A stretch of DNA of 64,000 nt from Eledone cirrhosa (Eukaryota), in NCBI GenBank assembly GCA_964016885.1, contig OZ024743.1:261144001-261208000 (forward strand), in the 5' to 3' direction. The position numbers and the translations under genes were made by a program. Below, one piece after another: positions 933-61,514 of this stretch. The notes under the pieces are model-generated. The model was not told the DNA's origin. It did not search any database and saw only the letters and a list, made by a program, of their open reading frames with translations. Position 1 is the first letter of the stretch; the number at the start of each line of letters is the position of its first letter.

Positions 933-3900
933 TATGTTACAGGTATATAAGGCAGGTCAGGGTGGTATGTTATAGTAATATAAGGCAGGCCAGATGGTAT
1001 GTTGTAGGTATTTAAGACAGGCCAGGTTGGTATGTTATAGGTATAAAAGATGAGAACAGGGTGGTATGTTATAGGTATATAAGGCAGGCCAGGTTGGTAT
1101 GTTATAGGTATAAAAGGCAGGCCAGATGGTATGTTACAGGTATATAAGGCAGGTCAGGGTGGTATGTTATAGGTATATAAGGGAGGCCAGGTTGGTATGT
1201 TACAGGTATATAAGGCAGGCCAGATGGTATGTTACAGGTATATAAGGCAGGCCAGATGGTATGTTACAGGTATATAAGGCAGGTCAGGGTGGTATGTTAT
1301 AGGTATTTAAGGCAAGCCAGGTTGGTATGTTATAGGTATATAAGGCAGGCCAGAGTGGTATGTTACAGATATATAAGAGAGGCCAGATGGTATGTTATAG
1401 GTATATAAGGTTAGAACAGGGTGGTATATTATAGGTATATAAGGCAGGCCAGGGTGGTATGTTATAGGTATATAAGGCAGGCCAGGGTGGTATGTTATAG
1501 GTATATAAGGCAGGCCAGGGTCGTATGTTATAGGTATATAAGGCAGTCCAGGGTCGTATGTTATAGGTATATAAGGCAGGCCAGAGTGGTATGTTACAGG
1601 TATATAAGGCAGGCCAGGGTGGTATGTTATAGGTATATAAGGCAGGCCAGATGGTATGTTACAGGTATATAAGGCAGGCCAGGGTGGTATGTTACAGGTA
1701 TATAAGACAGGCCAGATGGTATATTACAGGTATATAAGGCAGGCCAGGGTTGTATGTTATAGGTTTATAACGCAGGCCTGGGTGGTATTGTACAGGTATA
1801 TAAGGCAGGCCAGGGTTGTATGTTACAGGTATATAAGGCAGGCCAGGGTGGTATGTTATAGGTATATAAGGCAGGCCTGGGTGGTATTGTACAGGTATAT
1901 AAGGCAGGCCATGGTTGTATGTTACAGGTATATAAGGCAGGCCAGGGTGGTATGTTACAGGTATATAAGGCAGGCCAGGGTGGTATGTTATAGGTATATA
2001 AGGCAGGCCAGAGTGGTATGTTATAGGTATATAAGGCAGGCCAGGGTGGTATGTTATAGGTATATAAGGGGAGGTGAGGGTGGTATGTTACAGGTATATA
2101 ATCCGACCAGGGTGGTATGTTACAGGTATATAAGGAAGGCCAGGGTGGTATGTTATATGTATATAAGGCAGGCCAGGGTGGTATGTTACAGGTATATAAG
2201 GCAGGCCAGGGTGGTATGTTATAGGTATATAAGGCAGGCCAGGGTGGTATTGTACAGGTATATAAGCCAGGCCAGGGTGGTATGTTATAGGTATATAGGG
2301 CAGACCGGAGTGGTATATTACAGGTATATAAGGCAGGCCATGGTGGTATGTTATAGGTATATAAGGCAGGCCAGGGTGGTAAGTTATAGGTATATAAGGC
2401 TGGCCCGGGTGGTATGTTACAGGTATATAAGGCAGGCCAGGGTGGTATGTTATAGGTATATAAGGGGAGGTCAGGGTGGTATGTTACAGGTATATAATGA
2501 GACGAGGGTGGTATGTTACAGGTATATAAGGCAGGCCAGATGTTATGTTATAGGTGTTAAGGCATGCCAGGGTGGTATGTTACAGGTATATAAGGCAGGC
2601 CAGGGTGGTATGTTATAGGTATATAAGGCAGGTCAGGGTGGTATGTTATAGGTATATAAGGCAGGCCAGGGTTGTATGTTATAGGTATATAAGGCAGGCC
2701 AGGGTGGTATGTTATAGGTATATAAGGCAGGCCAGGGTGGTATGTTACAGGTATATAAGGCAGGCCAGGGTGGTATGTTATAGGTATATAAGGGGAGGTC
2801 AGGGTGGTATGTTACAGGTATATAATGAGACGAGGGTGGTATGTTACAGGTATATAAGGCAGGCCAGATGTTATGTTATAGGTGTTAAGGCATGCCAGGG
2901 TGGTATGTTACAGGTATATAAGGCAGGCCAGGGTGGTATGTTATAGGTATATAAGGCAGGCCAGGGTGGTATTTTACAGGTATATAAGGCAGATCGGGGT
3001 GGTATGTTACAGATATATAAGGTAGGCCAGAGTGGTATATTACAGGTATATCAGGGAGGCCAGAGTGGTATGTTACAGGTATATAAGGGGAGGTCAGGAT
3101 GGTATGTTATAGGTATATGAGGCTGGCCAGATGGTATGTTATAGATAATAAAGGCAGACCAGGGTGGTATGTTATAGGTATATAAGGCAGGCCAGAGTGG
3201 TATATTACAGGTATATCAGGGAGGCCAGAGTGGTATGTTACAGGTATATAAGGGGAGGTCAGGATGGTATGTTATAGGTATATGAGGCTGGCCAGATGGT
3301 ATGTTATAGATAATAAAGGCAGACCAGGGTGGTATGTTACAGGTATATAAGGGGAGGTCAGGTTGGTATGTTACAGGTATATAAGGCAGGCCAGAGTGGT
3401 ATATTACAGGTATATCAGGGAGGCCAGAGTGGTATGTTACAGGTATATAAGGGGAGGTCAGGATGGTATGTTATAGGTATATGAGGCTGGCCAGATGGTA
3501 TGTTATAGATAATAAAGGCAGACCAGGGTGGTATGTTACAGGTATATAAGGGGAGGTCAGGTTGGTATGTTATAGGTATATAAGGCAGACCAGATGATAT
3601 GTTATAAGTATATAAGGCAGGCCAGATGGTATGTTATAGGTATATAAGGCCTGCCAGATGGTATGTTATAGGTATATAAGGCAGACCAGATAGTATGTTA
3701 TAAGTATATAAGGCAGGCCAGATGGTATGTTATAGGTATATAAGGCAGGCCAGGGTGGTATGTTACAGGTATATAAGGCAGGCCAGGGTGGTATGTTACA
3801 GATATATAAGGCAGGTCAGTGTGGTATGTTACAGGTATATAAGGCAGGCCAAGGTGGTATGTTACAGGTATATAAGGCAGGTCAGTGTGGTATGTTACAG

Positions 3901-6900
3901 GTATAATAGGCATGCCAGGGTGGTATGTTATAAATATATAAGGCAGGCCAGGATGGTATGTTATAAATATATAAGGCAGGCCAGATGGTATGTTACAGGT
4001 ATATAAGGCAGGCCAGATGGTATGTTATAGGTATATATGAGGAGGTCAGGGTGGTATGTTATAGGTATATTAAGGCAGGCCAAGGTGGTATGTTATAGGT
4101 ATATAAGGCAGCCCAGGTTGGTATGTTATAGATATATAAGGCAGGCCGGGGTGGTATGTTATAGGTATATAAAGCAGGCCAGGAAGGTATGTTACAGGTA
4201 TATAAGGCAGGCCAGATGGTATGTTACAGGTACATAAGGTAGGCCATGGTGGTATGTTCTAGGTATATAAGGCAGGCCAGGGTTGTATGTTACAGGTATA
4301 TAAGGCAGGCCAGTGTGGTATGTTAAAGGTATATAAGGCAGGCGAGATGGTATGTTACAGGTATATAAGGCAGGCCAGGGTGGTATGTTATAGTTATATA
4401 AGGCAGGCCAGATGGTATCTTACAGGCATATAGGGCCGGCCAGGGTCATATGTTATAGGTATATAAGGCAGGCCAGGATGGTATGTTACAGGTATATAAG
4501 GCAGTCCAGATGGTATGTTACAGGTATATAAGGCAGGCCAGGGTGGTATGTTATAGGTATATAAGGCAGCCAGGGTGGTATTTTACAGGTATATAAGGCA
4601 GGCCAGATGTTATGTTATAGGTATATAAGGCAGCCAGATTGTATGTTACAGGTATATAAGGTAGGCCAGGGTGGTATGTTATAGGTATATAAGGCAGCCA
4701 GGGTGGTATTTTACAGGTATATAAGTTAGGCCAAGGTGGTATGTTATAGGTATATAAGACAGGCCAGGGTGGTATTTTATAGGTATATAAGGCAGGCCAG
4801 AGTGGTATGTTACAAGTATATAAGGCAGGCCAGATAGTATGTTACAGGTATATAAGGCAGGCCAGATGGTATGTTATAGGTATATAGGGCAGGCCGGATT
4901 GGTATATTACAGGTATATAAGGCAGGCCAGGGTGGTATGCTATAGGTATATAAGGCCGGCCAGGGTGGTATTGTAGAGGTTTATACGGCATGCCAGGGTG
5001 GTATGTTATAGGTATATAAGGCAGGCCAGAGTGGTATTGTACAGATATATAAGGCAGGTCAGGGTGGTATGTTATAGGTATATAAGGCAGGCCAAGGTGG
5101 TATGTTATAGGTATATAAGGCAGGCCAGGGTGGTATGTTATAGGAATATAAGGCAGGCCAGGGTGGTATGTTACAGGTATATAAGGCAGGCCAGGGTGGT
5201 ATGTTATAGGTATATAAGGCAGGCCAGGGTGGTATGTTATAGGTATATAAGGGGAGGTCAGGTTGGTATGTTACAGGTATATAATCCGACCAGGCTGGTA
5301 TGTTACAGGTATATAAGGCAGGCCAGATGTTATGTTATAGGTATTAAGGCAAGCCAGATGGTATGTTATATGTATATAAGGCAAGCCTGATGATATGTTA
5401 CAGGTATATAAGGCAGGCCTGATGGTATGTTATAGGTATATAAGTTGAAGTCAGTGTTGTATGTTATAGGTATATAAGGCAGGCCAGATGTTATGTTATA
5501 GGTATTAACACAGACCAGATGGTATGTTATATGTATATAAGGCAGGCCTGATGTTATGTTACAGGTATATAAGGCAGGCCTGATGGTATGTTACTGGTAT
5601 ATAAGGCAGGCCAGAGTGGTATGTTACAGGTATATAAGGCAGGTCAGTCTGGTATGTTACAGGTATATAAGGCAGGTCAGGGTGTTATTTTACAGGTATA
5701 TAAGGCAGGTCAGGGTGTTATTTTACAGGTATATAAGGCAGGTCAGGGTGGTATGTTACAGGTATATAAGGCGGGCCAGTGTGGTATGTTATATGTATAT
5801 AACGCACGCCAGATGGTATGTTATAAGTATATAAGGCAGGCCAGATGGTATGTTATAGGTATATAAGGCAGGCCAGATGGTATGTTATAGGTATATAAGG
5901 CAGGCCAGATGGTATGTTATAGGTATATAAGGCAGACCAGATGGTATGTTATAAGTATATAAGGCAGGCCAGATGGTATGTTATAGGTATATAAGGCAGA
6001 CCAGATGGTATGTTATAGGTATATAAGGCAGGTCAGATTGTATGTTACAGGTATATAAGGCAGGCCAGATGGTATGTTACAGGTATATAAGGCAGGTCAG
6101 GGTGGTATGTTATAGGTATATAAGGCAGGTCAGATGGTATGTTACAGGTATATAAGGCAGGTCAGGTTGGTATGTTATAGGTATATAAGGCAGGTCAATG
6201 GTATGTTACAGGTATATAAGGCAGCTCAGGTTGGTATGTTATAGGTATATAAGGCAGGTCACATGGTATGTTACAGGTATATAAGGCAGGCCAGATGGTA
6301 TGTTACAGGTATATAAGGCAGGTCAGGTTGGTATGTTATAGGTATATAAGGCAGGTCAGATGGTATATTACAGGTATATAAGGCAGGCCAGATGGTATGT
6401 TACAGGTATATAAGGCAGGTCAGGTTGGTATGTTATAGGTATATAAGGCAGGTCAGATGGTATGTTACAGGTATATAAGGCAGGCCAGATGGTATGTTAC
6501 AGGTATATAAGGCAGGCCAGATGGTATGTTACAGGTATATAAGGCAGGTCAGGGTGGTATGTTATAGGTATATAAGGCGGGCCTGGGTGGTATGTTATAG
6601 GTATATAAGGCAGGCCAGGGTGGTATGTTATAAGTATATAAGGCAGCCCTGATGTTATGTTACAGGTATATAAGGCAGGCCTGATGGTATGTTACTGGTA
6701 TATAAGGCAGGCCAGGGTGGTATGTTATAGGTATATAAGGCAGGTCAGATGGTATGTTACAGGTATATAAGGCAGGCCTGATGGTATGTTACAGGTATAT
6801 AAGGCAGGTCAGTGTGGTATGTTATAGGTATATAAGGCAGGCCAGATGGTATGTTATAGGTATATAAGGCTAGGCCAGGATGGTAAGTTATAGGTATATA

Positions 6901-9900
6901 AGGGGAGTCAGGGTGGTATGTTACAGATATAGAAGGCAGGCCAGGGTGGTATGTTACAGGTATAGAAGGCAGGCCAGATGGTATGTTATAGGTATATAAG
7001 GCAGGTCAAGGTGTTGTGTTATAGGTATTTAAGACAGGCTAGGTTGGTATATTATAGGTATATAAGGCAGGCCAGATATGTATGTTACAGGTATATAAGG
7101 CAGCCAGATGGTATGTTATAGGTATATAAGGCAGGCCAGATGGTATGTTACAGGTATATAAGGCAGGCCAGATGGTATGTTACAGGTATATAAGGCAGGT
7201 CAGGGTGGTATGTTATAGGTATATAAGGCGGGCCTGGGTGGTATGTTATAGGTATATAAGGGGAGTCAGGGTGGTATGTTACAGGTATATAGGCAGGCCA
7301 GTGTGGTATGTTACAGGTATAGAAGGCAGGTCAGGGTGGTATGTTATAGGTATAGACGGCAGGCCAGATGCTATGTTATAGGTATATAAGGCAGGTCAGG
7401 TTGGTATGTTATAAGTATATAAGGCAGCCCTGATGTTATGTTACAGGTATATAAGGCAGGCCTGATGGTATGTTACTGGTATATAAGGCAGGCCAGGGTG
7501 GTATGTTATAGGTATATAAGGCAGGTCAGATGGTATGTTACAGGTATATAAGGCAGGCCTGATGGTATGTTACAGGTATATAAGGCAGGTCAGTGTGGTA
7601 TGTTATAGGTATATAAGGCAGGCCAGATGGTATGTTATAGGTATATAAGGCAGGCCAGATGGTATGTTATAGGTATATAAGGCAGGCCAGATGTTATGTT
7701 ACAGGTATATAGGTCAGGCCGGAGTGGTATATTACAAGTATATAAGGCAGGACAGCGTATTATGCTATAGGTATATAAGGCAGGCCTGGGTGGTATATTA
7801 CAGGTATATAAGGCAGGCCAGGGTTGTATGTTATAGGTTTATAACGCAGGCCTGGGTGGTATTGTACAGGTATATAAGGCAGGCCAGGGTTGTATGTTAC
7901 AGGTATATAAGGCAGGCCAGGGTGGTATGTTATAGGTATATAAGGCAGGCCTGGGTGGTATTGTACAGGTATATAAGGCAGGCCATGGTTGTATGTTACA
8001 GGTATATAAGGCAGGCCAGGGTGGTATGTTACAGGTATATAAGGCAGGCCAGGGTGGTATGTTATAGGTATATAAGGCAGGCCAGAGTGGTATGTTATAG
8101 GTATATAAGGCAGGCCAGGGTGGTATGTTATAGGTATATAAGGGGAGGTGAGGGTGGTATGTTACAGGTATATAATCCGACCAGGGTGGTATGTTACAGG
8201 TATATAAGGAAGGCCAGGGTGGTATGTTATATGTATATAAGGCAGGCCAGGGTGGTATGTTACAGGTATATAAGGCAGGCCAGGGTGGTATGTTATAGGT
8301 ATATAAGGCAGGCCAGGGTGGTATTGTACAGGTATATAAGCCAGGCCAGGGTGGTATGTTATAGGTATATAGGGCAGACCGGAGTGGTATATTACAGGTA
8401 TATAAGGCAGGCCATGGTGGTATGTTATAGGTATATAAGGCAGGCCAGGGTGGTAAGTTATAGGTATATAAGGCTGGCCCGGGTGGTATTGTACAGGTAT
8501 ATAAGGCAGGCCAGGGTTGTATGTTATAGGTATATAAGGCAGGCCAGGGTGGTATGTTATAGGTATATAAGGCAGGCCAGGGTGGTATGTTACAGGTATA
8601 TAAGGCAGGCCAGGGTGGTATGTTATAGGTATATAAGGGGAGGTCAGGGTGGTATGTTACAGGTATATAATGAGACGAGGGTGGTATGTTACAGGTATAT
8701 AAGGCAGGCCAGATGTTATGTTATAGGTGTTAAGGCATGCCAGGGTGGTATGTTACAGGTATATAAGGCAGGCCAGGGTGGTATGTTATAGGTATATAAG
8801 GCAGGCCAGGGTGGTATTTTACAGGTATATAAGGCAGATCGGGGTGGTATGTTACAGATATATAAGGTAGGCCAGAGTGGTATATTACAGGTATATCAGG
8901 GAGGCCAGAGTGGTATGTTACAGGTATATAAGGGGAGGTCAGGATGGTATGTTATAGGTATATGAGGCTGGCCAGATGGTATGTTATAGATAATAAAGGC
9001 AGACCAGGGTGGTATGTTATAGGTATATAAGGCAGGCCAGAGTGGTATATTACAGGTATATCAGGGAGGCCAGAGTGGTATGTTACAGGTATATAAGGGG
9101 AGGTCAGGATGGTATGTTATAGGTATATGAGGCTGGCCAGATGGTATGTTATAGATAATAAAGGCAGACCAGGGTGGTATGTTACAGGTATATAAGGGGA
9201 GGTCAGGTTGGTATGTTACAGGTATATAAGGCAGGCCAGAGTGGTATATTACAGGTATATAAGGCAGGCCAGGGTGGTATGTTATAGGTATATAAGGGGA
9301 GGTCAGGTTGGTATGTTACAGGTATATAAGGCAGGCCAGATGGTATTTTACAGGTATATAAGGCCGGCCAGGGTGGTATTCTAGAGGTTTATACGGCAGG
9401 CCAGGGTGGTATGTTATAGGTATATAAGGCAAGCCAGGGTGGTATTATACAGGTATATAAGGCAGGCCAGGGTAGTATGTTATAGGTATATAAGGCAGGC
9501 CAGGGTGGTATGTTATAGGTACATAAGGCAGGCCAGGGTGGTATGTTGTATGTATATAAGGCAGGCCAGGGTGGTATGTTATAGGTATATAAGGCAGGCC
9601 AGGGTGGTATGTTATAGGTATATAAGGGGAGGTCAGGTTGGTATGTTACAGGTATATAAGGCAGGCCAAATGTTATGTTATAGGTATTAAGGCAGGCCAG
9701 ATGGTATGTTATATGTATATAAGGCAAGCCTGATGGTATGTTACAGGTATATAAGGCAGGCCGGGGTGGTATGTTATAGGTATATAAGCGGAGTCAGGGT
9801 GGTATATTACAGGTATAGAAGGCAGGCCAGATGCTATGTTATAGGTATATAAGGCAGGTCAGATGGTATGTTACAGGTATATAAGGCAGGTCAGATGGTA

Positions 9901-12900
9901 TGTTACAGGTATATAAGCCAGGTCAGGATGGTAAGTTATAGGTATATAAGGGGAGTCATGGTGGTATGTTACAGATATAGAAGGCATGTCAGGGTGGTAT
10001 GTTACAGGTATAGAAGGTAGGCCAGATGGTATGTTATAGGTATATAAGGCAGGTCAGGGTGGTATGTTATAGGTATATAAGGCAGGCCAGATGTTATGTT
10101 ACAGGTATATAAGGCAGGCCAGATGTTATGTTACAGGTATATAAGGCAGGCCAGATGGTATGTTACAGGTATATCAGGCAGGTCAGGTTGGTATGTTACA
10201 GGTATATAAGGCAGGCCAGATGTTATGTTACAGGTATATAAGGCAGGCCAGATGTTATGTTACAGGTATATAAGGCAGGCCAGATGGTATGTTACAGGTA
10301 TATAGGGCAGGCCGGAGTGGTATATTACAGGTATATAAGGCAGGCCAGGGTGTTATGCTATAGATATATAAGGCAGGCCAGGGTGGTATCGTACAGGTAT
10401 ATAAGGCAGGCCAGGGTGGTATGTTATAGGTATATAGGGCAGACCGGAGTGGTATGTTATAGGTATATAGGGCAGACCGGAGTGGTATATAAGGCAGGCC
10501 AGGGTGGTATCGTACAGGTATATAAGGCAGGCCAGGGTGGTATGTTACAGGTATATAAGGCAGGCCAGGGTGGTATGTTACAGGTATATAAGGCAGGCCA
10601 GGGTGGTATGTTATAGGTATATAAGGCAGGCCAGGGTGGTATGTTATAGGTATATAAGGGGAGGTCAGGGTGGTATGTTACAGGTATATAATCCGACCAG
10701 GGTGGTATGTTACAGGTATATAAGACAGGCCAAATGTTATGTTACAGGTATATAAGGCAAGCCTGATGGTATGTTACAGGTATATAAGCCTGGCCTGATG
10801 GTATGTTACAGGTATATAAGGCAGGCCAGGGTCGTATGTTACAGTTATATAAGGCAGGCGAGGGTGGTATTGTACAGGTATATAAGGCAGGCCAGCCTGG
10901 TATGTTACAGGTATATAAGGCAGGCCAGGGTGGTATGTTATAGGTATATAAGACAGGCCAGGTTGGTATTTTACAGGTATATAAGGCAGGCCAGGGTGGT
11001 ATGTTATAGGTATATAAGGCAGGCCAGGGTGGTATGTTACAGATATATAAGGTAGGCCAGGGTGGTATGTTATAGGTATATAAGGCAGGCCAGAGAGGTA
11101 TGTTATAAGTATATAAGTCAGGCCAGGGTAGTATATTACAGGTATATCAGGGAGGCCAGAGTGGTATGTTACAGGTATATAAGGGGAGGTTAGGATGGTA
11201 TGTTATAGGTATATGAGGCTGCTAGATGGTATGTTATAGGTAATTAAGCAGGCCAGGGTGGTATGTTACAGGTATATAAGTCAGGACAGATGTTATGTTA
11301 TAGGTATTAAAGCAGGCCAGATGGTATTTTATATGTATATAAGGCAGGCCTGATGGTATGTTACAGGTATATAAGGCAGGCCAGGGTGGCGCGTTACAGG
11401 TATGTAGAGCAGGACAGGGTGGTATGTTACAGGTATATAAGGCTGGCAACGTGATATGTTATAGGTATATAAGGCAGGCCATGGTGGTATGCTATAGATA
11501 TATAAGGCAGGCCTGGGTGGTATGTAACAGGTATATAAGGCAGGCCGGGGTGGTATTTAAAAGGTATATAAGACAGGCCAGGGTCGTATGTTACAGGTAT
11601 AAAGGGCAGGCCAGATGGTATGTTACAGGTATATAAGGCAGGCCAGATGGTATGTTATATGTATATAAGGCAAGCCTGATGGTATGTTACAGGTATATAA
11701 GGCAGGCCTGATGGTATGTTACTGGTATATAAGGCAGGCCAGGGTGGTATGTTATATGTATATGAGAGGAGGTCAGGGTGGTATGTTACAGGTATATAAT
11801 CCGACCAGGGTGGTATGTTACAGGTATACAAGGCAGTCCAGATGTTATGTTATATGTATATAAGGCAGGCCTGATTTTATGTTACAGGTATATAAGGCAG
11901 GCCAGGCTGGTATGTTACAGTTATATAAGGCAGGCCAGAGTCGTATGTTATAGGTATATAAGGCAGGCCAGGGTGGTATTTTACAGGTATATAAGGCCGG
12001 CCAGGGTGGTATTGTAGAGGTTTATACGGCAGGCCAGGGTGGTATGTTATAGGTATATAAGGCAGGCCAGGGTGGTATGTTATAGGTATGTAAGGCAGGC
12101 CAGGATGGTATGTTAGAGGTATATAAGGCAGGTCAGGGTGGTATGTTATATGTATATAAGGCAGGCCAGGGTGGTATGTTATAGGTATATAAGGGGAGGT
12201 CAGGTTGGTATGTTACAGGTATATAATCCGACCAGGCTGGTATGTTACAGGTATATAAGGCAGGCCAGATGTTATGTTATAGTTATTAAGGCAGGCCAGA
12301 TGGTATGTTATATGTATATAAGGCAGGCCTGATGTTATGTTACAGGTATATAAGGCAGGCCTGATGGTATGTTACTGGTATATAAGGCATGCCAGGGTGG
12401 TATGTTACAAGTATATAAGGCAGGCCAGGCTGGTATGTTAGTTATATAAGGCAGGCCAGGGTCGTATGTTATAGGTATATAAGGCAGGCCAGGGTGGTAT
12501 GTTATAGGTATATAAGGCAGGCCAGGGTGGTATGTTACAGGTATATAACGCAGGCCAGGGTGGTATTGTACAGGTATATAAGGCAGGCCAGGGTGGCATT
12601 GTACAGGTATATAAGGTAGGCCAGGGTGGTATGTTATAGGTATATAAGGCAGGCCAGGGTGGTATGTTATAGGTATATAAGGGGAGGTCAGGGTGGTATG
12701 TTACAGGTATATAAGCCGACCAGGGTGGTATGTTACAGGTATATAAGACAGGCCAAATGTTATGTTATAGGTGTTAAGGCAGGCCAGATGGTATGTTATA
12801 TATATATAAGGCAAGCCTGATGGTATGTTACAGGTATATAAGGCAGGCCTGATGGTATGTTACAGGTATATAAGGCAGGCCAGGGTGGTGTGTTACAGGT

Positions 12901-15900
12901 ATATAAGGCAGGCCAGGTTCGTATGTTACAGTTATATAAGGCAGGCGAGGGTGGTATGTTATAGGTATATAAGGCAGGCCAGGGTGGTATGTTATATGTA
13001 TATAAGGCAGGCCAGGCTGGTATGTTACAGGTATATAAGGCAGGCCTGATGGTATGTTACAGGTATATAAGGCAGGCCAGGGTGGTATGTTATATGTATA
13101 TAAGGCAGGCCAGGCTGGTATGTTACAGGTATATAAGGCAGGCCTGATGGTATGTTACAGGTATATAAGGCAGGTCAGGGTGGTATGTTATAGGTATATA
13201 AGACAGGCCATGTTGGTATTTTACAGGTATATAAGGCAGGCCAGGGTGGTATGTTATAGGTATATAAGGCAGGCCAGGGTGGTATGTTACAGGTATATAA
13301 GGCAGGCCAGGGTGGTATGTTATAGGTATATAAGGAAGTCCAGGGTGGTATTTTACAGCTATATAAGGCAGATCAGGGTGGTATGTTACAGATATATAAG
13401 GTAGGCCAGGGTGGTATGTTATAGGTATATAAGGCAGGCCAGAGTGGTATGTTATAAGTATATAAGGCAGGCCAGGGTAGTATATTACAGGTATATCAGG
13501 GAGGGCAGAGTGGTATGTTACAGGTATATAAGGGGAGGTCAGGATGGTATGTTATAGGTATATGAGGCTGGCCAGATGGTATGTTATAGATAATTAAGGC
13601 AGAACAGGGTGGTATGTTACAGGTATATAAGGCAGGACAGATGTTATGTTATAGGTATTAAAGCAGGCCAGATGGTATTTTATATGTATATAAGGCAGGC
13701 CTGATGGTATGTTACAGCCATATAAGGCAGGCCAGGGTGGTGCGTTACAGGTATGTAGAGCAGGACAGGGTGGTATGTTACAGGTATATAAGGCAGGCCA
13801 GGGTGGTATGTTATGGGTATATAAGGCAGGTCAGGGTGGTATGTTATAGGTATATAAGGCAGGCGAGGGTGGTATGTTATAGGTATATAAGGGGAGGTCA
13901 GGATGGTATGTTATAGGTATATAAAGCAGGCCAAGGTGGTATGTTACAGGCATATAAGTCAGGCCAGGGTGGTGCGTTACAGGTATGTAGAGCAGGACAG
14001 GGTGGTATGTTACAGGTATATAAGGCAGGCCAGGGTGGTATGTTATAGATAATTAAGGCAGGCTAGATGGTAGGTTACAGATATATAAGGTGAGGTCAGT
14101 GTTGTATGTTAGAGGTATATAAGGCAGGCCAGGGTGGTATGTTATATGTATATGAGGGGAGGTCGGGGTGGTATGTTACAGGTATATAATCCGACCAGGG
14201 TGGTATGTTACAGGTATACAAGGCAGGCCAGATGTTATGTTATAGGTATTAAGGCAGGCCAGATGGTATGTTATAGGTATATAAGGCAGGCCAGATGGTA
14301 TGTTATATGTATATAAGGCAGGCCTGATGTTATGTTACAGGTATATAAGGCAGGCCTGATGGTATGTTACAGGTATATAAGGCAGGCCAGTGTGGTATGT
14401 TACAGGTATATAAGGCAGGCCAGGCTGGTATTTTACAGGTATATAAGGCAGGCCAGGGTGGTATGTTATAGGTATATAAGGCAGGCCAGGATGGCATATT
14501 ACAGGTATATAAGGCAGGTCAGGGTGGTATTTTACAGGTATATAAGGCAGGTCAGGGTGGTATGTTATAAGTATATAAGGCAGGCCAGGGTGGTGTTTTA
14601 CTGGTAAATAAGGGGAAGTCTTGATGTTAGGTTATAGGTATATAAGGCAGACCATTGTAGTATGTTACAGGTATATAAGGCGGGCCAGTGTGGTATGTTA
14701 TAGGTATATAAGGCATTTCAGATGGTATGTTATAGGTATATAAGGCAGGCCAGGGTGGTGTTTTACTGGTAAATAAGGGGAGGTCTTGATGTTAGGTTAT
14801 AGGTATATAAGGGGAGGTGAGTGTGGTATGTTATAGGTAATTAAGGCAGGCCAGGGTGGTATGTTACAGGTATATTAATGGAGGTCAGGATGGTATGTTA
14901 TATGTATATAAGGCAGGCCAGTTGGTATGTTATAGGTATTTAAGGCAGGCTGGGGTGGTATGTTATAGGTATATAAGGGGAGTCAGGGTGGTATGTTACA
15001 GGTATATAAGGCAGGCCGGGGTGGTATGTTATAGGTATATAAGGGGAGTCAGGGTGGTCTGTTACAGGTATAGAAGGCAGGCCAGGGTGGTATGTTACAG
15101 GTATAGAAGGCAGGCCAGGGTGGTGTTACAGGTATAGAAGGCAGGCCAGATGCTATGTTATAGGTATATAAGGCAGGTCAGGTTGGTATGTTATAGGTAT
15201 ATAAGGCAGGCCAGATGGTATGTTACAGGTATATAAGGCAGGCCAGATGGTATGTTACAGGTATATAAGGCAGGCCAGATGGTATGTTACAGGTATATAA
15301 GGCAGGCCAGATGGTATGTTACAGGTATATAAGGCAGGCCAGATGGTATGTTACAGGTATAGAAGGCAGGCCAGGGTGGTATGTTACAGGTATAGAAGGT
15401 AGGCCAGATGGTATGTTAGAGGTATATAAGGCAGCCAGATGGTATGTTATAGGTATATAAGGCAGGTCAGATGGTTTCTAATAGGTATATAAGGCAGGCC
15501 AGATGGTATGTTACAGGTATATAAGGCAGGCCAGATGGTATGTTACAGGTATATAAGGCAGGCCAGGGTGGTATGTTATAGGTATATAAGGGGAGGTGAG
15601 TGTGGTATGTTATAGGTATATAAGGCAGGCCAGATGGTATGTTACAGGTATATAAATGGAGGTCAGGATGGTATGTTATATGTATATAAGGCAGGCCTGT
15701 TGGTATGTTCTCGGTAATTAAGGCAGGCCAGGGTGTTATGTTACAGGTATATAAGGGGAGGTGAGTGTGGTATGTTATAGGTATATAAGGCAGGCCAGGG
15801 TGGTATGTTACAGGTATATAAATGGAGGTCAGGATGGTATGTTATATGTATATAAGGCAGGCCTGTTGGTATGTTCTCGGTAATTAAGGCAGGCCAGGGT

Positions 15901-17042
15901 GGTATGTTATAGGTATATAAGGGGAGGTGAGTGTGGTATGTTATAGGTATATAAGGCAGGCCAGGGTGGTATGTTACAGGTATATAAATGGAGGTCAGGA
16001 TGGTATGTTATATGTATATAAGGCAGGCCTGTTGGTATGTTCTCGGTAATTAAGGCAGGCCAGGGTGTTATGTTACAGGTATATAAGACAGGCCAGATGG
16101 TATGTTACAGGTATATAAGGCAGGTCAGGTTGGTATGTTATAGGTATATAAGGCAGGTCAGGGTGGTATGTTATAGGTATATAAGGCAGGCCGGGGTGGT
16201 ATGTTATAGGTATATAAGGGGAGTCAGGGTGGTATGTTACAGGTATATAAGGCAGGTCAGGTTGGTATATTATAGGTATATAAGGCAGGCCAGATGGTAT
16301 GTTACAGGTAAATAGGGCAGGCCGGAGTGGTATATTACAGGTATATAAGGCAGGCCAGGGTGGTATTGTACAGGTATATAAGGCAGGCCAGGGTGGTATG
16401 TTATAGGTATATAAGGCAGGCCAGGGTGGTATGTTATATGTATATAAGGCAGGCCAGGGTGGTATGTTATATGTATATAAGGCAGGCCGGAGTGGTATAT
16501 TACAGGTATATAAATCAGGCCAGGGTGGTATGTTATATGTATATAAGGCAGGCCGGAGTGGTATATTACAGGTATATAAGGCAGGCCAGGGTGGTATGTT
16601 ATATGTATATAAGGCAGGCCGGAGTGGTATATTACAGGTATGTAAGGCAGGCCCGGGTGGTATGTTATAGGTATATAAGGCAGGCCAGGGTGGTATGTTA
16701 TAGGTATATAAGGCAGGCCAGAGTGGTATGTTATAGGTATATAAGGCAGGCCAGAGTGGTATGTTATAGGTATATAAGGCAGGCCCGGGTGGTATGTTAT
16801 AGGTATATAAGGCAGGCCAGAGTGGTATGTTATAGGTATATAAGGCAGGCCCGGGTGGTATGTTATAGGTATATAAGGCAGGCCAGAGTGGTATGTTATA
16901 GGTATATAAGGCAGGCCAGAGTGGTATGTTATAGGTATATAAGGCAGGCCCGGGTGGTATGTTATAGGTATATAAGGCAGGCCAGAGTGGTATGTTATAG
17001 GTATATAAGGCAGGCCAGGGTGGTATGTTATAGGTATATAAG
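933..17042. repeat. Tandem satellite, consensus GTGGTATGTTAYAGGTATATAAGGCAGGCCAGG (33 bp; 32- and 34-bp variants), roughly 490 units
   Basis: Unit spacing read directly (e.g. AAGGCAGGCC at 1441 and 1474). Copy number is length divided by ~33. Diagnostic variants recur in blocks. Confidence 0.98.
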
Positions 17043-20990: not shown

Positions 20991-21080
20991 CTAGCTCCTA
21001 CTCCCGTAGTAGAGCACTTTCCGACCCTACCACGCCGTATCCAGACTTTTCCGCTAAGCTCAATTTCTTTCACCCGCACC

Positions 21081-23241
21081 ATGCGAAAACGCAACATCGA
21101 CTTCTCTACCAAGAACATCCCAATCCCACCGAAACAACTTTACCTTCGGATGCTCACGCAAAAAATCGATCTATTTGCGAAAAGACTTAGATGGAGAACT
21201 TTTTTCTATGACAGATATTGCGACAACCAGGACTTCGGCACCAAGGAGAGATTCGGATTTATTACCTACAAATCCCCCCCCCCCCCCGAACCCTTTGCTC
21301 TCACCCTTCGAGAATGACCTATTCCAACTGGTCAAGAACATTAAATTCAAACCCAGACACAACCGATTCCTACAAAAACTCCGTAGCAACTTAACAGAGT
21401 ATGATAACACCAATGACATCATGGTGCATTCGGATAAAACTGGGAACCTATACTTTGTCAACCCTGACAGATACCACACACTGATCAGGAGCAGCCTAAA
21501 CTCCACCTATAAAAAGGCCAACCACTCATGCATCGAGGACATAAATCGAGATGGACAACAAATTACCTCCAGGCTCGGGGTCGCCGACCGCACGGAATCC
21601 CTAGACCCACGGACACCATACTTCACACTGAAGGACCATAAATCCGATTTTGACCGTAAACCTTCTATCAGGCTTATTAACCCAACGAAGTCCGACATAG
21701 GGAGAATCAGCAAAAAAATCCTAGACTGCGTGATACCAAAAGTCAAGCAACACGCCCGACTTAGCCTATGGATCAACACCCAGGAAGTAATCTCATGGTT
21801 CAGTAATATGGAGGATAAACGAGACACTAAATTCATACAGTTCGACATAGAGAGCTACTATGCTTCAATCACCTTACCGCTACTTACTGCTGCCTTGGAC
21901 TTCGCCGAAACACTTGTGCCCATCACCGACCAGGAAAGAAAAATCATCCTCCACGCCAGGAAGACAGTCTTACTCTTTGACAACTCTAAATGGATAAAAA
22001 GAGCTCCCGACTCACCCTTCGACGTCAGCATGGGCGCCACGGATTCGGTGGAGGTCACAGATCTTATAGGATTATTCCTAATAGCCAAACTCACCGATGT
22101 GTTTCCTGCATTCGGTGGTGGATTGTACCGTGATGATGGGCTCCTTACCCTTAAAGGGTACAACCCCAGTAGTACAGATCGGGTCCGGAAACAATTAATC
22201 AGCTTCTTCCGCGACTGGGGATTTTAAATAACCCTACAAACGTCCCTGACCCGAGTAAACTTCCTGGACGTGACCCTCGACCTCGAAAACGACCTGTACT
22301 ACCCATACAGGAAACCTAATGACAACCTGCACTACATCCACCGCCGATCAAACCATCCTAGGAACATCACCAACAACCTGGTCAAAAACATCTCCCTCCG
22401 CATATCCCGTTTGTCAGCTAATGAGCGGATATTCGATGAACATGCGCCTTATTACAATCAGGTCCTCAAGCGGAGTGGTTTCCGGGAGGAAATATCCTAC
22501 TGTCCAGCTCCCATTAGCGGAACCAACAGGAGACACCGCCGCTCACGCAATGTAACATGGTTCAATCCTCCCCACAACGCAGAGGTGACAACTCCCATCG
22601 GGAAAATATTCTTTAGGCTCATTGAAAAACACTTCCCACTACAACACCGCTACCACAACATAATTAACAAAAATACCATCAAACTCTCTTACAGCACTAC
22701 ACCAAACTTCGCACAAAACATCGTCTCCTCTAACAACAAAAAACTCAACCCCGATGGAAGAAATAACCTAAATAGCAGTGGAGAGCCGACCAGGAGGTGC
22801 AACTGTCCGGATAGATCCATTTGCCCACTCGACAATAGATGCAGAGACCGTAATGTGATCTACCAGTGCAACGTGAGGACGGACATCTCCAACAAAACTT
22901 ATATAGGACTAACCGCATGTGACTTCAAGACCCGGCTATACCAACATAGACATACCTTCCGAAACCCGGCCCGGCGTCACGCCACTGCACTTTCGGGCCA
23001 CATATGGGACCTCAAGGACAACAACATCACCTATGATCTCACTTGGAGATTACTGTCCAGAGCCAACTCTTACACTGGAGGACGCAGTCCGTGCAATTTA
23101 TGCTCGGAGGAAACTTTACAAATGTTGTTTTCGACGGACCAACTCCTAAACAAGAAAGATGAACTGGTTACTGCATGTAAACATAGATTGCGTAGGACTT
23201 ACCTCGCCCTCAAACCCCATAATGACCCGAGGGGGGGGTAG
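21081..23241 (+). pseudogene. Naiad PLE polyprotein (RT + GIY-YIG) with one frameshift and one nonsense codon
   Basis: ATG at 21081; +1 shift in the C14 run 21274-21287; FDIESYY, YRDDGL, NFLDVT; TAA at 22225-22227 where Lys is expected; VIYQC...YIGLT...KTRLYQH; CNLC..E. Confidence 0.9.
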
Positions 23242-25016: not shown

Positions 25017-26986
25017 TGTAGCAAGAGTTGTCACTTCCGTCTTGGGACCCTATAAAAGGGATAGCTCAGGGCGATCTCACTCTCTTCTACCTGCCTGGCC
25101 CTTCGGCCAGGCGTCTTCGGCCAGGCGCGTTCGCCGAGGCTCTACTCTCTGGCAACCCTAACATGGTCTCTTGCGAGTTCACTTCAAAACGGTAACAAAT
25201 AACTTTACTTCATTCTTTCATCTACTCTTGACATGTCAACAATTCTATTCTACATAACTTCAACTTGTTAATTAAACTTTATACACACAACCTAGTGTCC
25301 CTGTTGTATTCATACAACCCAGTCTTTTGTTATAAGTGGTGACCCCGAAAAAAGAAAAAAAATGATAGGATCTGGTGTTGTGTGAATATATATAAAAAAA
25401 TTAATTAGCAGTACCCCATTTTCGTTGGAATGTGTCGACCAACATTTCGAATACGCAGCAAACTTTATTAACAAACTAGGAAAAATACGCAGACACAGAA
25501 ACGAACACACGCACATGTGAAATTCTCGTTCAGACAGACTCTTTTTCAACATGAACATTTATTTTTGCTGAATCTCAACTATTGCTTATTCTTTCCACTA
25601 AGCTTTTTTCATCGTTCACAAAAAATTGAACTTGCCATATTTGTTATACCAAGTGAAGCCTTTCTTTCTTTTTCATCATATTATCACGTTCACACACATA
25701 TTTTTAAAAATGGCTGCCAACGACCTATTGCACTATCATTTTCGCGCCATTTTCTCGCGCAATAGAATTTTTTTTTTTCAACTTGTCTTTAACCTTGTTT
25801 CGGCACGTGTGGGGAGCACACATCTCGACTCACTGAGATAACACACGCCATAGATAATGTTCCTTACCAAGGATTCTCCAGCCTTAAGCTATATTCTCCT
25901 ATTTGCCGGTTTAAAAATTTACCACGTAAATTTGCCGTTGAAAACTGCGCATTTATTCAGAATGCTTATTTCTTTGGTCGCTGGCATCTTGACCCTTCCA
26001 GGTCAACGCATTCTCAACACCGACCATCAACTTTGGCTGTTATTTCTAGCACTTTGCGCAACTCATTTTTTCTGGGAAAATTTTTACTGTGAATTTAAAC
26101 AACATCGAATACGCTCACTCCGCGAGACAACAACATCAACAACCAAAACCAGCAGAACAAAACAGAATTTATTTTTGCAGCACTCTTCCTGTGAGAAAAT
26201 CCCACCGAATTTCACGTTGTACCACAGTCTAGAGTGACCACCTGCATACATTCCCTGGAGGACACACTTTCTTTCCTGCTGTCATGTGATTGCACACCGG
26301 TGAACTGTATTTTGAACATTTGAACTTTGACCTCTTTTAGTTTGATTACATTGTATCTTTGGGTGATGGATAGATAGATGTCCAGTCGTTCTCTGGCCAA
26401 GAGCGGTTGGCTACCTTGATATCTATCATTGATTTTTGCATGCATATATTTTGCTGTTTTCCTTTTATTGCAAACATTATTTTTTTCGTAATTTTCATGC
26501 CTGGACTTTGGTGTTACATGCTCGCCATCTTACGCCATACATGGTTCATTCGATTTTTATATTTTAAAAATCTGGCGGGGGATAATGTAGCAAGAGTTGC
26601 TTCCCTTATGACAATCCCATCACCGCTCTCTAGACAGGAAGTAGCTGGAGTTACTTCCTGTTGGGGTGGAAGAACCCTTTTTGTCACTTCCGTCTTGGGA
26701 CCCTATAAAAGGGATAGCTCAGGGCGATCTCACTCTCTTCTACCTGCCTGGCCCTTCGGCCAGGCGTCTTCGGCCAGGCGCGTTCGCCGAGGCTCTACTC
26801 TCTGGCAACCCTAACATGGTCTCTTGCGAGTTCACTTCAAAACGGTAACAAATAACTTTACTTCATTCTTTCATCTACTCTTGACATGTCAACAATTCTA
26901 TTCTACATAACTTCAACTTGTTAATTAAACTTTATACACACAACTGAGTCTCCTGTTATGTTCATACAACCCAGCATTCTGTTATA
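25017..26986 (+). mobile_element. Non-autonomous LTR retrotransposon (Gypsy-like signals, TRIM/LARD-like)
   Basis: LTRs 25017-25334 and 26586-26986 (TGTAGC...GTTATA, TATAAAAG inside); PBS TGGTGACCCCGA at 25337 (tRNA-Trp-type); PPT-like CTGGCGGGGGATAA before the 3' LTR; flanks AGAT/ACAT as an imperfect 4-bp TSD; no gag/pol seen. Confidence 0.85.
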
Positions 26987-27094
26987 ACATGCTTACAGAT
27001 TCCCACTTCCACTGTCATAGTAGCAGATGTCTCAGACAAAGGTCAGCCAGAGGAAGAATTTTGTCCACCTGCTTACCAACAACTTGACGTTGCC

Positions 27095-28679
27095 ATGGCA
27101 ACAAACCAAAACGAAAAGTGTGAAACAATGAACAAAAACAACACAACCAGCGGCACCAGCAACAACAACAACAACAACAACAGCAACAATGATGACAGCA
27201 ACACCAACAAGAACAACTCCACAAAAAAAAAAAGAAACAATTTCGTTCACACAAACTGTGCAAAAGACGAACTGTATACACAGATTGACATCTCTAATGC
27301 CGGAGAATTGCTAAGAGATGCCAAGCAATACATAACTTTTGGAGAGAATGGCGTTTTTAGCATCACTTCTCCCCAAGAATTGCGTAGAGACACTGTCCTG
27401 AAAACTATAGTTTTCAGGACAATCTCAAATACCACTAGAAACCCAGCTCAATTAACTCAAAATGAAACTGAGCTGGTTCTAAGAAACTCCATGAAGGATA
27501 TTATCTTCATACAGAAGGGAAAACTCTTCGGGAGTTTATCGATAATAATGAAAGACCAATTGACTGCACAGAAATATTGTGTTGCCAATTGTGTGTGTGT
27601 GTGTGTGTGTGTGTCCCCCTACACCTTTTCTCCCCACATATATGGGAAAAGGACCCAAAAAATAAGGATAACGAGCATCACGCCAAATGTAAATATCTGG
27701 TGGATATTGAGTGGCTTTATCAACTTTGATGAAGACACAATAATTTCGGTACGAAAGTCCCCCAGGAGTATATTTAATGGTACCAGCTTAGAAGTTCTGG
27801 TCCAAATGAGGCCAGAATGAATAGCTAGAATCCCACGTGTGCCTCTGGATGAAGTTTCCTACATAAACATTTCTGTTGAGGGTAGGCGGCCTTCGTGTTA
27901 CCACTATTTAAGCAGTGGTCACCTGAGAGCTTCCTGTCCTCAATTAACTGCGGGGGAAAAAAGGCACTACTGCCGACACCCAACACAACAACACCACTCC
28001 TCCATGCCTAAAACAACAACACACAAAAATAACCAAAACAAACCAAACCGCAAACACAGTCCCACCCAACCCCTCCCTGCCTAAAACAACTCCAAAAACA
28101 CCCACAAGCACAACAGCTCCCCAAAACGTACCCATCCCCAATCACACAGACACCACAACGGACGAGGCCCCCTCATCATCACTCAGTGGTGAGAACTCCT
28201 CTGCTCCAAAAGGAAAAAAAAACATAACACGAACAAAAAAGCAACAAACACAAACATCTACAACAAAACGAAAACACACACAAGAACAACAGACAAAAAC
28301 CAACACAACACAACAAGAACATTACACATACATAAACAGTGAAAACAAAACTTTAATGGAGGTCATCTCCAACAACCCTTCGGTTTTTACCGAAGGGAAA
28401 AATTTTTCGAACTGTGTAGACAGACCCAATTTAAAGATGATTAGGGTCTCTACAGACACCTATAAGTCTTTAAAGAAAAACTTTCCTAAGGACGTGGGTA
28501 ATCCCTGCGTTAAACCCATTAACCGCGTCTATTTAAAATGTTTCCCCACCCCCATCCCACCAGACACCCCCTCCCCATCAAACATCTCCGTCCCCACCCC
28601 GCCAGAAACCACCACCTCACCAAACAACCCCTCCAACATGGAAATTGTGCAGCCTGATCCCCAGGAGACGAAGAGGTGA
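27095..28679 (+). pseudogene. LINE ORF1 (gag-like, degenerate CCHC knuckle CYHYLSSGHLRASC)
   Basis: ORFs 27095-27820 and 27839-28084 are in the same frame, separated by one TGA; later frameshift to 28356-28679; (AAC)n and (TG)n expansions inside. Confidence 0.7.
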
Positions 28680-28719
28680 GTGATTTCTTTTCCTCTTCTT
28701 TTAACTTTTCAGCACCAGC

Positions 28720-31700
28720 ATGGCCAATATAAGAGTTGGATGTGTGAATGTACGTGGCCTGGGATGCCTTGGAAACGGCAAACTCTTAAACGACCTCAGG
28801 TCGCACAGTATGGATATAGTACCCATTTGCGAGTCCAGGATCCGCAGCGCGCGACAACTGGCCCCCCCATCTTCGATGACTTTGAGATTTACGCATCTCT
28901 CTGTCAGCCGGGAGATGGGGGTGGGGTTGCCGTTTTGCTGCGGAAACACCTGTACCTCGTAACACAGACGGTTCATCTGGACCCGGAGGGTCGACTGGTG
29001 GTCCTAGACGTTGACGGTAGTGAAGGTGGAGCCTTCAGGCTGGTGGTCGCATATGCCCCATTCGGGACACCGCGGCCAGACTTCTTCAAACGTCTAGAGA
29101 TTTTTCTGGAAACGTCCCGCTCCCTGCTGTTACAGGGGGACTGGGGTGGAATCCTAGATGCACGTTGGGACTATGTGGGAGCATGTCCCGATAGAGGGGG
29201 TCAGTTAATCGGCCGATTTCAACTGGCCGATAGATATCGACTAGATTTTCCAACTGTGCCACTGTGGACGTAAACCAACCACAGCGGAACATCTACATCG
29301 TACCTAGATATGTTTCTAGTTAGAGTTAGTGATAGGGACATGTTAAGCTGTCCACAAATGTTCATGGTTGCCTATTCAGATCACAAACTAGTGACCTGCT
29401 TAGTCAACCTTGACAGAACCCATAAACAGGGACCCGGCTACGGGAAGCTGAACTTGTCGTTACCGACATGCAAAGCCTACAGTAGACGGATTAGCACTTT
29501 AGTTAAGCAGCACTTGACGGGGGCCATTGTCAACAACGGATGGTGGTAGTCTTTCAAGAGGGAAGTTAGATTAGACTCGATAGGTTTTAGTAAAGAATTA
29601 GTGTTAGATAGAAATAAGACCGAAAAAGAACTGGTAGATAAAGTAGAAGAGGCACTTAGAAGTGGCAACGTAGCCAGCGTGCTAGCGACGAGAACGGCCT
29701 TGGAGCAGTTCTTCGACGCAAAGCATGAAGGCTGCGTTGTCAGGAGCAAAATTCGTGCTCTGGAAAATGAGGGAGCCAAAGCTGTTAGCTGGGCCCGAGT
29801 GACGGAGGCGAAAAGTGGCAACAAGTCCACGATTCGGTCTTTAAAGGACCAAGACGAACGCGTGATACGTGAGCCGAAACAGATGTGCGCGGCCTTTCAG
29901 CGACCCTTTGCTCAACTGTTTGGGAAGGGCGGCGCGCCGGGAGGGGCTATGGATTTTGGTCCATAACTCGACGGCCTGCCGCGACTCTCGGACAGCGAGG
30001 CGAAGTTCTGCGAAAGGCCGATTTCGGCCGCTGAGCCAATGCGTCAAACACAAATCTCCAGGTTTCGACGGTCTACCCTACGAATTTTACGTAGCAATGC
30101 CGGACTTGTTCTCCGGTCTCCTGGAAGCGGTCTACTGCAACTGGCAGCAGAACGGGAGAATTCCCAGTTCTGTGACCAAGGGCGTAGTCACGTTAGTCAG
30201 GAAGGACGAGAATAAGGGGGATGACATAGGCAACTTCCGGCCCATAACTCTGCTAAACACAGAGTTACAGATTTTGGCCAAGGTGTTGGCAAAGAGGCTG
30301 ACGCTTGTCGTCCAAAACCTGGTGGGAGAAGCGCAGACATGCGCAATCCCGACCAGGTCCATACACGACAACCTCCATCTCATGCGATACATCATAGAGA
30401 GGTTAGGGTATAAACCCGGCTTTGGTGGGGCCCTGATCAACTTGGATCAGTCTAAGGCTTTCGATAGGGTTGACTATCGTTACCTGGAGGCGGTGCTCGA
30501 GGAGGCAGGCTTCGTACCCGTGTTCAGGGGCTGGATTGCTGCAATGCACAGCAGCAACATCTGCTCAAGGGTCAAGGTGAACGGCTACCTATCGGAGCCG
30601 TTCCATATCACGCGATCCATCCGACAGGGACGTCCTCTCTCCTCCCTTCTGTACGTACTGACTCTCGAGCCACTACTGCGGAAGTTGGAGCTATTGCAGG
30701 GCATCCCTTTGGAACCGGGACTACGAAAAGCGGCGTCGGCCTACGCCGACGACGTGACAGTAATGGTGTCGAGCGCCTCGCAAATCGGGGAGGTCGGCAC
30801 CTTACTGGAGGAATACGAAAGGTTCACAGGAGCGAAGCTGAACCGGGACAAATCCGTCGGTTTGCAACTCGGAACGTGGAGAGGCAAACCGATGCTTTCC
30901 GATGGCGTCGTCGGATGCTGGACGGAAGGACCGGTAAAGCTGCTCGAGGTCTGGTTTGGTCCGAACCTCCAAATGGAGAGGAACTGGAACGAGGTGACGG
31001 CCAAGGTGTTTGCACTCACCCGGAAGTGGGCCGAGTGCAAACTATCCTTGAAAGGTCGAGCGGAGGTGGCGAACACTTTTATAGCGTCCGTCATCTACTA
31101 CCGCTTGATCGTCGTGCCTTGTCCAGCCAAAACGCTCACCAAAATGGAGCGCGTGCTCTTCCAAGTCCTTTGGAATAAACGGGCTCCTTTGTTGAGAAGA
31201 TCCATCTGCTGCCAACACCCTTCAAACGGAGGGCTGGGGATGCCGTGGCTGACGATGCGCAAACATGCGCTCAGGCTGCGGCACATCCACGTATTCCTCA
31301 CCGGAAAACCGGTGTGGGGCCCCGTTCGTGAGGCGAGCCTTCCCACAACTCGTCTCGCTGACTGAGCTGCAGTCCTGGGTCAAGCAAAGACCGAGGGAAA
31401 TGGGCGACTGGCACATCGAATGTCCTTAGGCGCTCACAGTCCCCTGGCAAACGGACCCGGCGATCAGTGGAGACTCCACTTCGTCATTCTATAAAAGTAT
31501 GGTCCGCATCAAGTGCGACGACGCGCTCGGAGAAACTCTAGGCGTAGAGGAGGACGAACTGGCCAGTCTGTTCGGTAGGACCTTCCTCTCGTGACCGATG
31601 GACAACTTCCAAAAGTCCCTGGCCTGGCAGTGCTACCGAGGAGCTCTACAGACACGGGCGCCCGGGAAGGTACCCTTCGAAAAAGATCTGTCCGAGATGC

Positions 31701-32105
31701 GTGCGCGACGAGGAAAAAGTCGCGCACACATTTGTACACTGCCCGGACGTTACCGATCTGTGGTGCTATGTAGAACGACTATTGTCGCGGGTGGGACCAA
31801 TCCAGTTGACCACTGAGTCCATTGTCATGATCAAACCGCCACCCTCTTTCAAAAACGAGGGAGAGGCGGTTTTCCTATGTGTTATGGCTATGGTGAAAGA
31901 GGTTATATGGTGGACGAGGTTAAAAGGGCTGAGGTCAGACACCTTTCTTTCCGGCGAACAACTGATTCGTTTTTTCAAATAACATTTTGGAAGAAGAATC
32001 AGGATGGAGAGAGAGGTGCTGTACCCCAGCAAATTTTATAAAAGGTGGGTGAATGTGGCAAAGATGGCCCGAGTGGTTGGGCCTTCTCTCTATATAAGCC
32101 TGTAG
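28720..32105 (+). pseudogene. LINE ORF2 (AP endonuclease + reverse transcriptase), multiple frameshifts and stops
   Basis: MANIRVGCVNVRGL, GGGVAVLL, YSDHKLV, KSPGFDGLPYEFY, FRPITLLN, LDQSKAFDRV, RQGRPLS, YADDV, GGLGMP, HTFVHC. Confidence 0.92.
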
Positions 32106-32984
32106 GTTGAGGAAAAAGACGAAGAGAGGAAGGTAGTACTCACTCTCGGTGCTCCTGGGTTGTACATTTTTTCGGGGTATGTACAACCCCTGTATAACGA
32201 CTCCCCCCTATTGGGGATTTCAATTGTTATTTGTTATTTTATTAATAGTTTTATTTTCATATACCTGTATATAAACTCCCCATTTGTATTTGTCTCCTTC
32301 TTTTGTGCCCTTGTGGCTAATAAAGAAATTTATCTTAATTGTCAAACTTCTTTCGTCACTCATTCTGTGATATCATCAATGACTATTTGTTTTCCTCTGT
32401 GGCTCCTCTTCTTTCCACTTTTATTTTGTTTACTTCATCTTGTCTTTCTATGGTAGAATACAGTTTCCTGTGGCCATCTGCACATTGTTAACAACAACAG
32501 AATTCTGCTCCCTGCTATCCAGCAGGCTGTGTACTTCAGTCTGTTGCAGTGGCCAGAACAGTGTAGTTGCGAACAGAGGCTTACTCGGCCAGTTGTCCGA
32601 GACAGTCATACTTCCGTTCGATCCCAATAAAGGTTAGTTCCATGCATTTTTGTTTTTTTCCTGTGTTTTATAGAGGACTTAGATCTAAATTATTTCTTAA
32701 TAAAAATTATTAAAGTAGTGTTTGTCATTGTTTATTGAATCTTACTAATAACAGCTTAACTTTCAGGGCAACAAATACAGCTACACATCTCAACTCACTG
32801 AGACGCATTCACAATTTATTTGTCATAAAGTCACAAACATTTACTACTACAATTCTCCCACACTAAAATAAACAACTGACCTACCAAACGTCACTTTTTA
32901 CACACGCTTTAATGTAGTCATCACACTTACCAAATCACTAATACAAACTACATTTAGTGACACCAAACAACCTCACATAACCGC

Positions 32985-61160: not shown

Positions 61161-61514
61161 TGAAATACACTAACTGCATGATCATCATCACCATCATTAT
61201 CGTTGTTGTCATCATCATCATCATCACCACCACCACCACCACCATTCTCATCGTCACCATCAAGCAGAGCTACAGACCACTCAGATGAGCCAGGGGCCCT
61301 GTGCCCCTGCATCTCTCTTACATACACTCCCACGCAAAAATTTTAATGAGTTTAATAAAATAACTTTCATTTAGTAAAATAACATACATTAACAATAGAT
61401 TTTTTTTCATTTTAATATGATGGAAAGTTTTTATTTATATATGAACACTTTAAGATAGTGCTGTAGAATCAGAAGCAGCCTTATGTGTGTTGCTATCAAC
61501 ACTAATAAGTTTAA

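Follow-up and report, generated by a model that had tools for sequence, protein, structure and literature searches.

A conserved 5' splice site at the end of ORF1 in an octopod LINE group, and the possibility that ORF2 serves as its alternative intron

By its retention across families and its fit to U1, the motif GAG/GTGAGT (the slash marks the splice point), which overlaps the ORF1 stop codon of a decayed LINE in the genome of Eledone cirrhosa, is a conserved 5' splice site of the LINE group to which that copy belongs. The donor appears to have been used in splicing, in at least two events. To what is it spliced? We propose that in this octopod LINE group the whole reverse-transcriptase gene may be an alternative intron that sets the ORF1:ORF2 ratio, and that the same donor may make mobile two-family chimeras from read-through arrays; we put the probability of this reading at roughly 0.4. 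Taken by itself, the proposal that the donor pairs with the AG in the stop codon of ORF2, some 3.4 kb further on, and that a fraction of the transcripts would then encode ORF1 only, seems to us to stand at even odds.

The window is the whole stretch of 64,000 nucleotides analysed, from a 3.0-Gb host genome, and its LINE copy is laid out in Table 1. In blastn against fetched copies this LINE is 84% identical to the young copy L034 and 91% to L286; it is dead, both ORFs carrying stops and frameshifts, and its real 5' end could be some 100 bases to the left of 27124. The broken ORF1, for whose protein no Pfam family was found in two intact copies, retains a degenerate CCHC-type zinc knuckle near 27896-27940, and the second of its open pieces, of 243 codons, is closed by the TGA at 28677-28679. 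The ATG at 28720 opens the endonuclease N-terminus of ORF2, which in intact copies is about 1145 codons long and in one of them, L036, matches Exo_endo_phos and RVT_1, with a weak, sub-threshold match to zf-RVT. The spacer between the ORFs has a pyrimidine share of 0.79-0.93 across all families. Elsewhere in the window, 21058-23241 (+) holds two open frames, a reverse transcriptase and then a GIY-YIG-like tail, with one stop between them, which resemble a Penelope-type element; 59499-61169 (-) holds a 556-codon reverse-transcriptase frame with a cysteine-rich (PHD-like) segment from another LINE, presumably RTE-like; and the 16 kb from 1001 to 17000, with a steady strong G skew of 0.47-0.58, is probably a long tandem array.

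Table 1. Parts of the LINE copy, in window coordinates
Feature	Position	Strand	Basis
L1/Tx1-type two-ORF LINE, dead copy, apparently 5'-truncated	27124..32335	+	blastn span against relatives
Broken ORF1, open over 26948-27820 and over 27948-28679	26948..28679	+	open reading frames
5' splice site GAG/GTGAGT overlapping the ORF1 stop	28673..28681	+	conserved feature; 17 genomic copies joined exactly here
Pyrimidine-rich spacer with CAG at its end	28682..28712	+	comparison with family representatives
Broken ORF2 (endonuclease, reverse transcriptase, zinc-binding tail)	28720..32105	+	RVT_1 match in the window
Candidate distal acceptor: pyrimidine-rich run and TAG/G, the TAG (32103-32105) being the ORF2 stop	32082..32106	+	inferred from sequence
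AATAAA close to the LINE 3' end	32319..32324	+	sequence

The LINE group is likely to belong to Tx1, as a non-LTR element with an AP-like endonuclease and a reverse transcriptase in ORF2 and a separate ORF1, with the reservation that no named Tx1 reference is among the 120 homologues listed and that the tree of the reverse-transcriptase group covers only families of this genome. The nearest named homologues are from Argonauta hians. L1-Tx1 elements include Kibi, Koshi and other microsatellite-targeting Tx1 elements (PMC4494074), and 13 recently active L1-Tx1 families are reported for Octopus vulgaris (PMC13282606). The elements studied here resemble them in having two ORFs, an AP-like endonuclease, a reverse transcriptase and a zinc-binding tail. 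The fetched copies are found next to (ATCT)n or (ATT)n and in head-to-tail arrays, which may reflect a target preference such as many Tx1 members have. The arrays consist of different families, with units of about 5.8-5.9 kb separated by (ATCT)n or (ATT)n (L034, L105, L111, L114, L116, L117 and L124-L130). Family B is represented by more than 100 near-identical copies among those listed. In the 5' UTR, a GTRAG motif stands within the first 100 nt of all seven full-length elements read (L034, L106, L111, L114, L115, L119 and L120), and an inverted repeat shortly precedes the ORF1 start, for example AATATTTGGGCC..GGCCCAAATATT in families B and C. Family E begins its ORF2 with ATA instead of ATG in all eight copies (L058, L070, L071, L073, L115, L116, L124 and L130), and this ATA overlaps the ORF1 stop TAG; since both ORFs of L115 are open, a family with recent activity appears to initiate ORF2 at a codon other than AUG.

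How well is the donor kept? Among 13 subfamily representatives from this genome, all carry G/GTRRGT at the end of ORF1, 28-46 nt upstream of the ORF2 start, so that conservation of the GT, which had been proposed as a check in an earlier note on this DNA, is borne out. The donor stands in codon phases 2, 1 and 0 in eight, three and two of these representatives, with the ORF1 stop at +1, +5, +27 or +36 relative to it. As all three phases occur, neither the stop codon nor the protein can be what holds the donor in place. GTRAGT as a mere by-product of the stop codon was likewise rejected, the ORF1 stop being elsewhere in 5 of the 13. The donor-bearing families have a median ORF2 identity of 64% over the first 240 residues and of 56% at fourfold sites (12 rows). 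A donor-like motif lies within 60 nt upstream of 86 of 89 ORF2 starts, as against 12 of 628 background 60-nt windows; the 90 input loci for this count comprised 30 fetched by DNA likeness that included the donor and 60 fetched by ORF2 protein only. Variation in the donor is confined to the purines at +3 and +4, and the match to U1 spans both exon and intron sides, in columns of which the invariant ones were fixed by the search motif; in most full-length elements scanned, the site at the end of ORF1 is the best or tied-best U1 match. Further families were found by searching the genome with two distant proteins. In distant marine relatives of 25-40% identity (80 loci, of which 45 could be parsed and 40 were distinct), a donor-like motif occurs in 6 of 40 spacers, taken as the 80 nt preceding ORF2, whereas upstream windows have it in 9 of 337 cases (Fisher p = 0.002, or 0.009 against a rate of 4.5% that allows for the stop codon). 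The donor is above background in these relatives, yet not general to the clade. We found no description of a conserved splice donor at the end of a LINE ORF1 in the literature searched, which took in few subscription papers or Repbase entries, and in this respect the elements differ from L1-Tx1 as described in the accounts cited above.

The earlier note, written from the letters alone, had read the spacer as a 37-nt intron whose removal fuses ORF1 to ORF2 in frame. As a description of the letters this is exact: the exon ends in GAAGAG at 28675, 28676-28712 is a 37-nt stretch running GTGAGT...TTAACTTTTCAG, the consensus 5' splice site overlaps the ORF1 stop as claimed, and deletion of the stretch yields ...ETK-STS-MANIRV, with the ORF2 ATG in the ORF1 frame. 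Does the fusion extend beyond this lineage? The near AG is absent in 6 of the 13 representatives, out of frame in two and in frame in five, at GT-to-AG lengths of 24-39 nt, so the proposed check on the AG and its phase went against the fusion, with an AG before the ORF2 start in 7 of 13 and the frame in 5 of 13. The rate of in-frame AGs is close to the one-in-three chance expectation that the note itself gave. The in-frame cases include the window, its A-old and A2 relatives, and B2; one of the seven AGs, that of family G, is private to the single copy L127, being found neither in L128 nor in five other G copies. In a young sister subfamily, in which ORF1 (643 codons) and ORF2 (1150) are intact, there is one base fewer before the donor and splicing would lead out of frame.

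Precisely spacer-less genomic copies, which had also been suggested as a check, number zero: the exact spliced junction 28675-28713 has no match in the genome, against 547 + 523 = 1070 matches to the unspliced acceptor-plus-start motif. The first 40 of the latter comprise 19 of the young, out-of-frame subfamily, 16 of the window type with an intact donor context, four of the window type changed near the donor, and one truncated copy, so that the window type makes up about 40-50% (16-20 of 40 sampled). A variable-gap pattern for shortened spacers gave three genome matches and no spliced copy among them, one being an internal deletion that retains GT and AG and two having no ORF2 start motif. 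The same junction is absent from three contig runs (one sample, of unknown kind) compared over 28300-29300 only, and no fused N-terminus was seen among 2, 3 and 120 listed matches to homologous proteins, where the N-termini of proteins longer than 1050 aa were read. Because L1 proteins act preferentially on their own encoding RNA (PMC5860796), genomic copies of a functional fused message would be expected; an inactive fusion protein, on the other hand, would leave none anyway, and the window, A-old and A2 do combine a perfect GT, a pyrimidine run and an in-frame CAG, with B2 in frame too. On this comparison we regard the fusion intron as already largely refuted for the LINE group, and a single fused protein as very improbable; the near acceptor, the branch-like TTAAC and the fused frame are no more than a lineage trait. 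What stays plausible in the earlier proposal is that splicing controls ORF1 against ORF2, as the donor is conserved and apparently used, only not by way of a 37-nt fusing intron. A U12 intron and trans-splicing were both rejected by inspection, the donor being U2-type and the AG unconserved.

What suggests that the donor has been used? The end of the family-A exon without a following GT has 32 matches in the genome: 15 reflect a point change or the loss of one base, and the other 17 enter family D', in the ORF1 tail, exactly after the D' sequence GTGCAG. The search behind this count, like those for the other families given below, took in continuations whose second letter is not T, after an exact exon end of 16-20 nt and with three of four last letters, and misses products beginning GT. 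The 17 joined copies (L132-L148) form a chimeric subfamily with an A-type ORF1 and a D'-type ORF2. Downstream of the joint they are 90-98% identical to the D' copy L129 over the first 600 bases, and upstream they are A-type of two kinds, three being truncated near the joint. Two of them, L135 and L137, are joined a second time, once more precisely at the donor; the partner site follows a CCAG and lies, in another A-type copy, 75 nt ahead of that copy's donor. At the joints AG is the sole shared sequence, and homologous sequence is duplicated, not exchanged. No joint appeared in 11 matches to a control AG placed 23 nt upstream, nor in 14 matches for families B and C or in 14 for families D and G. 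Because the elements stand in mixed-family head-to-tail arrays, the simplest reading would be that read-through transcripts were spliced and then retrotransposed, at least twice, though template switching at the two-base overlap may instead have made the joints. In the chimeras ORF1 runs beyond the ORF2 start, another sign that in-frame fusion is not needed.

The joints found in the genome bypass the acceptor that we propose for ordinary use, the AG of the ORF2 stop. In the window the inferred intron would be 28676-32105, or 3430 nt. ORF2 ends in TAG/G in 10 of 12 subfamilies, and when the donor is joined to this AG a stop follows within three codons, each subfamily being read in its own phase, in 8 of these 10 (p = 0.011 with phases taken as uniform and 0.019 with phases permuted, for a three-codon threshold set post hoc and families that are kin). 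Between A2 (phase 2, /GTGA) and young A (phase 1, /GTTGA) there is a one-base difference at each end, and each of the two stops after one codon. A strict claim of compensating indels for B against B2 was dropped, since a phase-1 copy with a B2-type 3' end exists (L297). The window's own subfamily misfits the phase test, with 10 codons to the stop in the window and 33, 50, 59, 33, 33, 33 and 3 in seven other copies, as do family D (42 codons) and the chimeras (36 and 94). In family F the donor is retained, but ORF2 ends in TAA and there is no distal AG. The pyrimidine run before the distal TAG is coding sequence, and is weak in families B and C; TAG-G is a common stop context. For family A the genome holds no copy in which the donor is joined to the ORF2-stop AG, which is to be expected if RNA without ORF2 is rarely copied.

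LINEs require ORF1 protein in large excess over ORF2 protein, and the usual account is that one unspliced RNA yields this ratio through inefficient re-initiation. In the scheme we propose, some transcripts would be spliced from the donor to the ORF2-stop AG, losing ORF2 and yielding ORF1 protein only, and such a message, lacking an ORF2, would seldom give rise to genomic copies. The unspliced RNA would be both the template and the source of ORF2, probably made by re-initiation after the ORF1 stop, with which the ATA start of family E is in keeping. Read-through transcripts of head-to-tail arrays would at times be spliced at the same donor and reverse-transcribed into joined copies, and these would survive by keeping an ORF2 on the same RNA.

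The main rival to ORF2 as an intron, although on balance we think it unlikely, is that the donor is kept as a landing site for U1 snRNP, shielding an intron-less transcript from early termination and polyadenylation, with no intended acceptor and only accidental splicing. In human cells, a strong 5' splice site protects elongation without any need for splicing (PMC12211998), and in the copia element EVD it is U1 that keeps premature termination down (PMC5580714). Family F, with a donor and no distal AG, would be accounted for, as would the second GTRAG motif near the 5' end of the seven full-length elements and, in those inspected by eye, the lack of an AG run ahead of the ORF1 start. The hexamers AATAAA and ATTAAA are frequent in the A-rich ORF1 half, with one of them some 75-320 nt ahead of the donor in 6 of 7 families, and are nearly absent from ORF2; yet ORF2, with 0-2 of them, is the part downstream of the donor, and a protection site leaves unexplained that the first stop in the 3' UTR tracks the phase of the donor in 8 of 10 subfamilies. 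Protection by U1 and ORF2 as an intron can coexist, as U1 protection and splicing do in EVD (PMC5580714).

Two further readings turn on the spacer. Might the motif and its pyrimidine run serve translation, by retaining the ribosome or loading it again between the ORF1 stop and the ORF2 start, with the likeness to a splice site secondary? The constant placement 28-46 nt before ORF2, the ATA start of family E, the T-rich spacers that by eye are common in distant relatives, and the termination-reinitiation proposed for LINE-1 and SART1 (PMC5972666) would all suit such a role. We think it improbable, however, as the U1 consensus is matched on both exon and intron sides with only the +3 and +4 purines varying (again with the invariant columns fixed by the search motif), and as joints exactly at GT point to the spliceosome. 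A shade less probable even than the fused protein is that the CAG before ORF2 serves as acceptor for the 5' UTR donor, the product being an ORF2-only mRNA comparable to the SpORF2 of human L1 (PMC2896524). Donor-like motifs exist in the 5' UTR, and an AG stands just before the start in A-type and B families, but 6 of the 13 representatives have none there, so that this could hold only for lineages with the AG; moreover, an ORF2-only RNA could itself be copied, yet all loci fetched by ORF2 protein alone show the ORF1 end and spacer upstream.

If ORF2 is indeed an alternative intron, how does the LINE compare with known systems? It is like human L1 in its bicistronic RNA, its short spacer and an ORF2 probably made by re-initiation (PMC2896524, PMC5972666), but SpORF2 removes ORF1, whereas the octopod signals would fit removal of ORF2 (PMC2896524). 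Arabidopsis Ty1/copia elements make a spliced mRNA for the structural protein only, the shGAG of EVD (PMC5580714). A spliced RNA for the structural protein, an unspliced RNA for enzyme and genome, and U1 guarding against termination are features shown in EVD, and ones that the LINE may share; EVD, however, is an LTR element that encodes a single polyprotein and whose short intron is coupled to premature termination, while the putative intron of the LINE is the whole of ORF2 (PMC5580714). Human SpIREs likewise are genomic copies joined at an element's donor and an AG, with one donor and several acceptors, but their donor is in the 5' UTR, the joint is within one element, and they are called dead ends (PMC5860796). 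The octopod donor is at the end of ORF1, it is joined to acceptors of a different element, and the resulting two-family chimera is present in 17 copies. A first metagenome scan and a viral scan gave no matches.

If the proposal is true, a LINE with a spliced ORF1-only message would have come to the same solution as the copia elements. The joined copies, for their part, suggest splicing as a route by which ORF1 may be exchanged between LINE families, and, unlike human SpIREs, the joined products appear to have multiplied.
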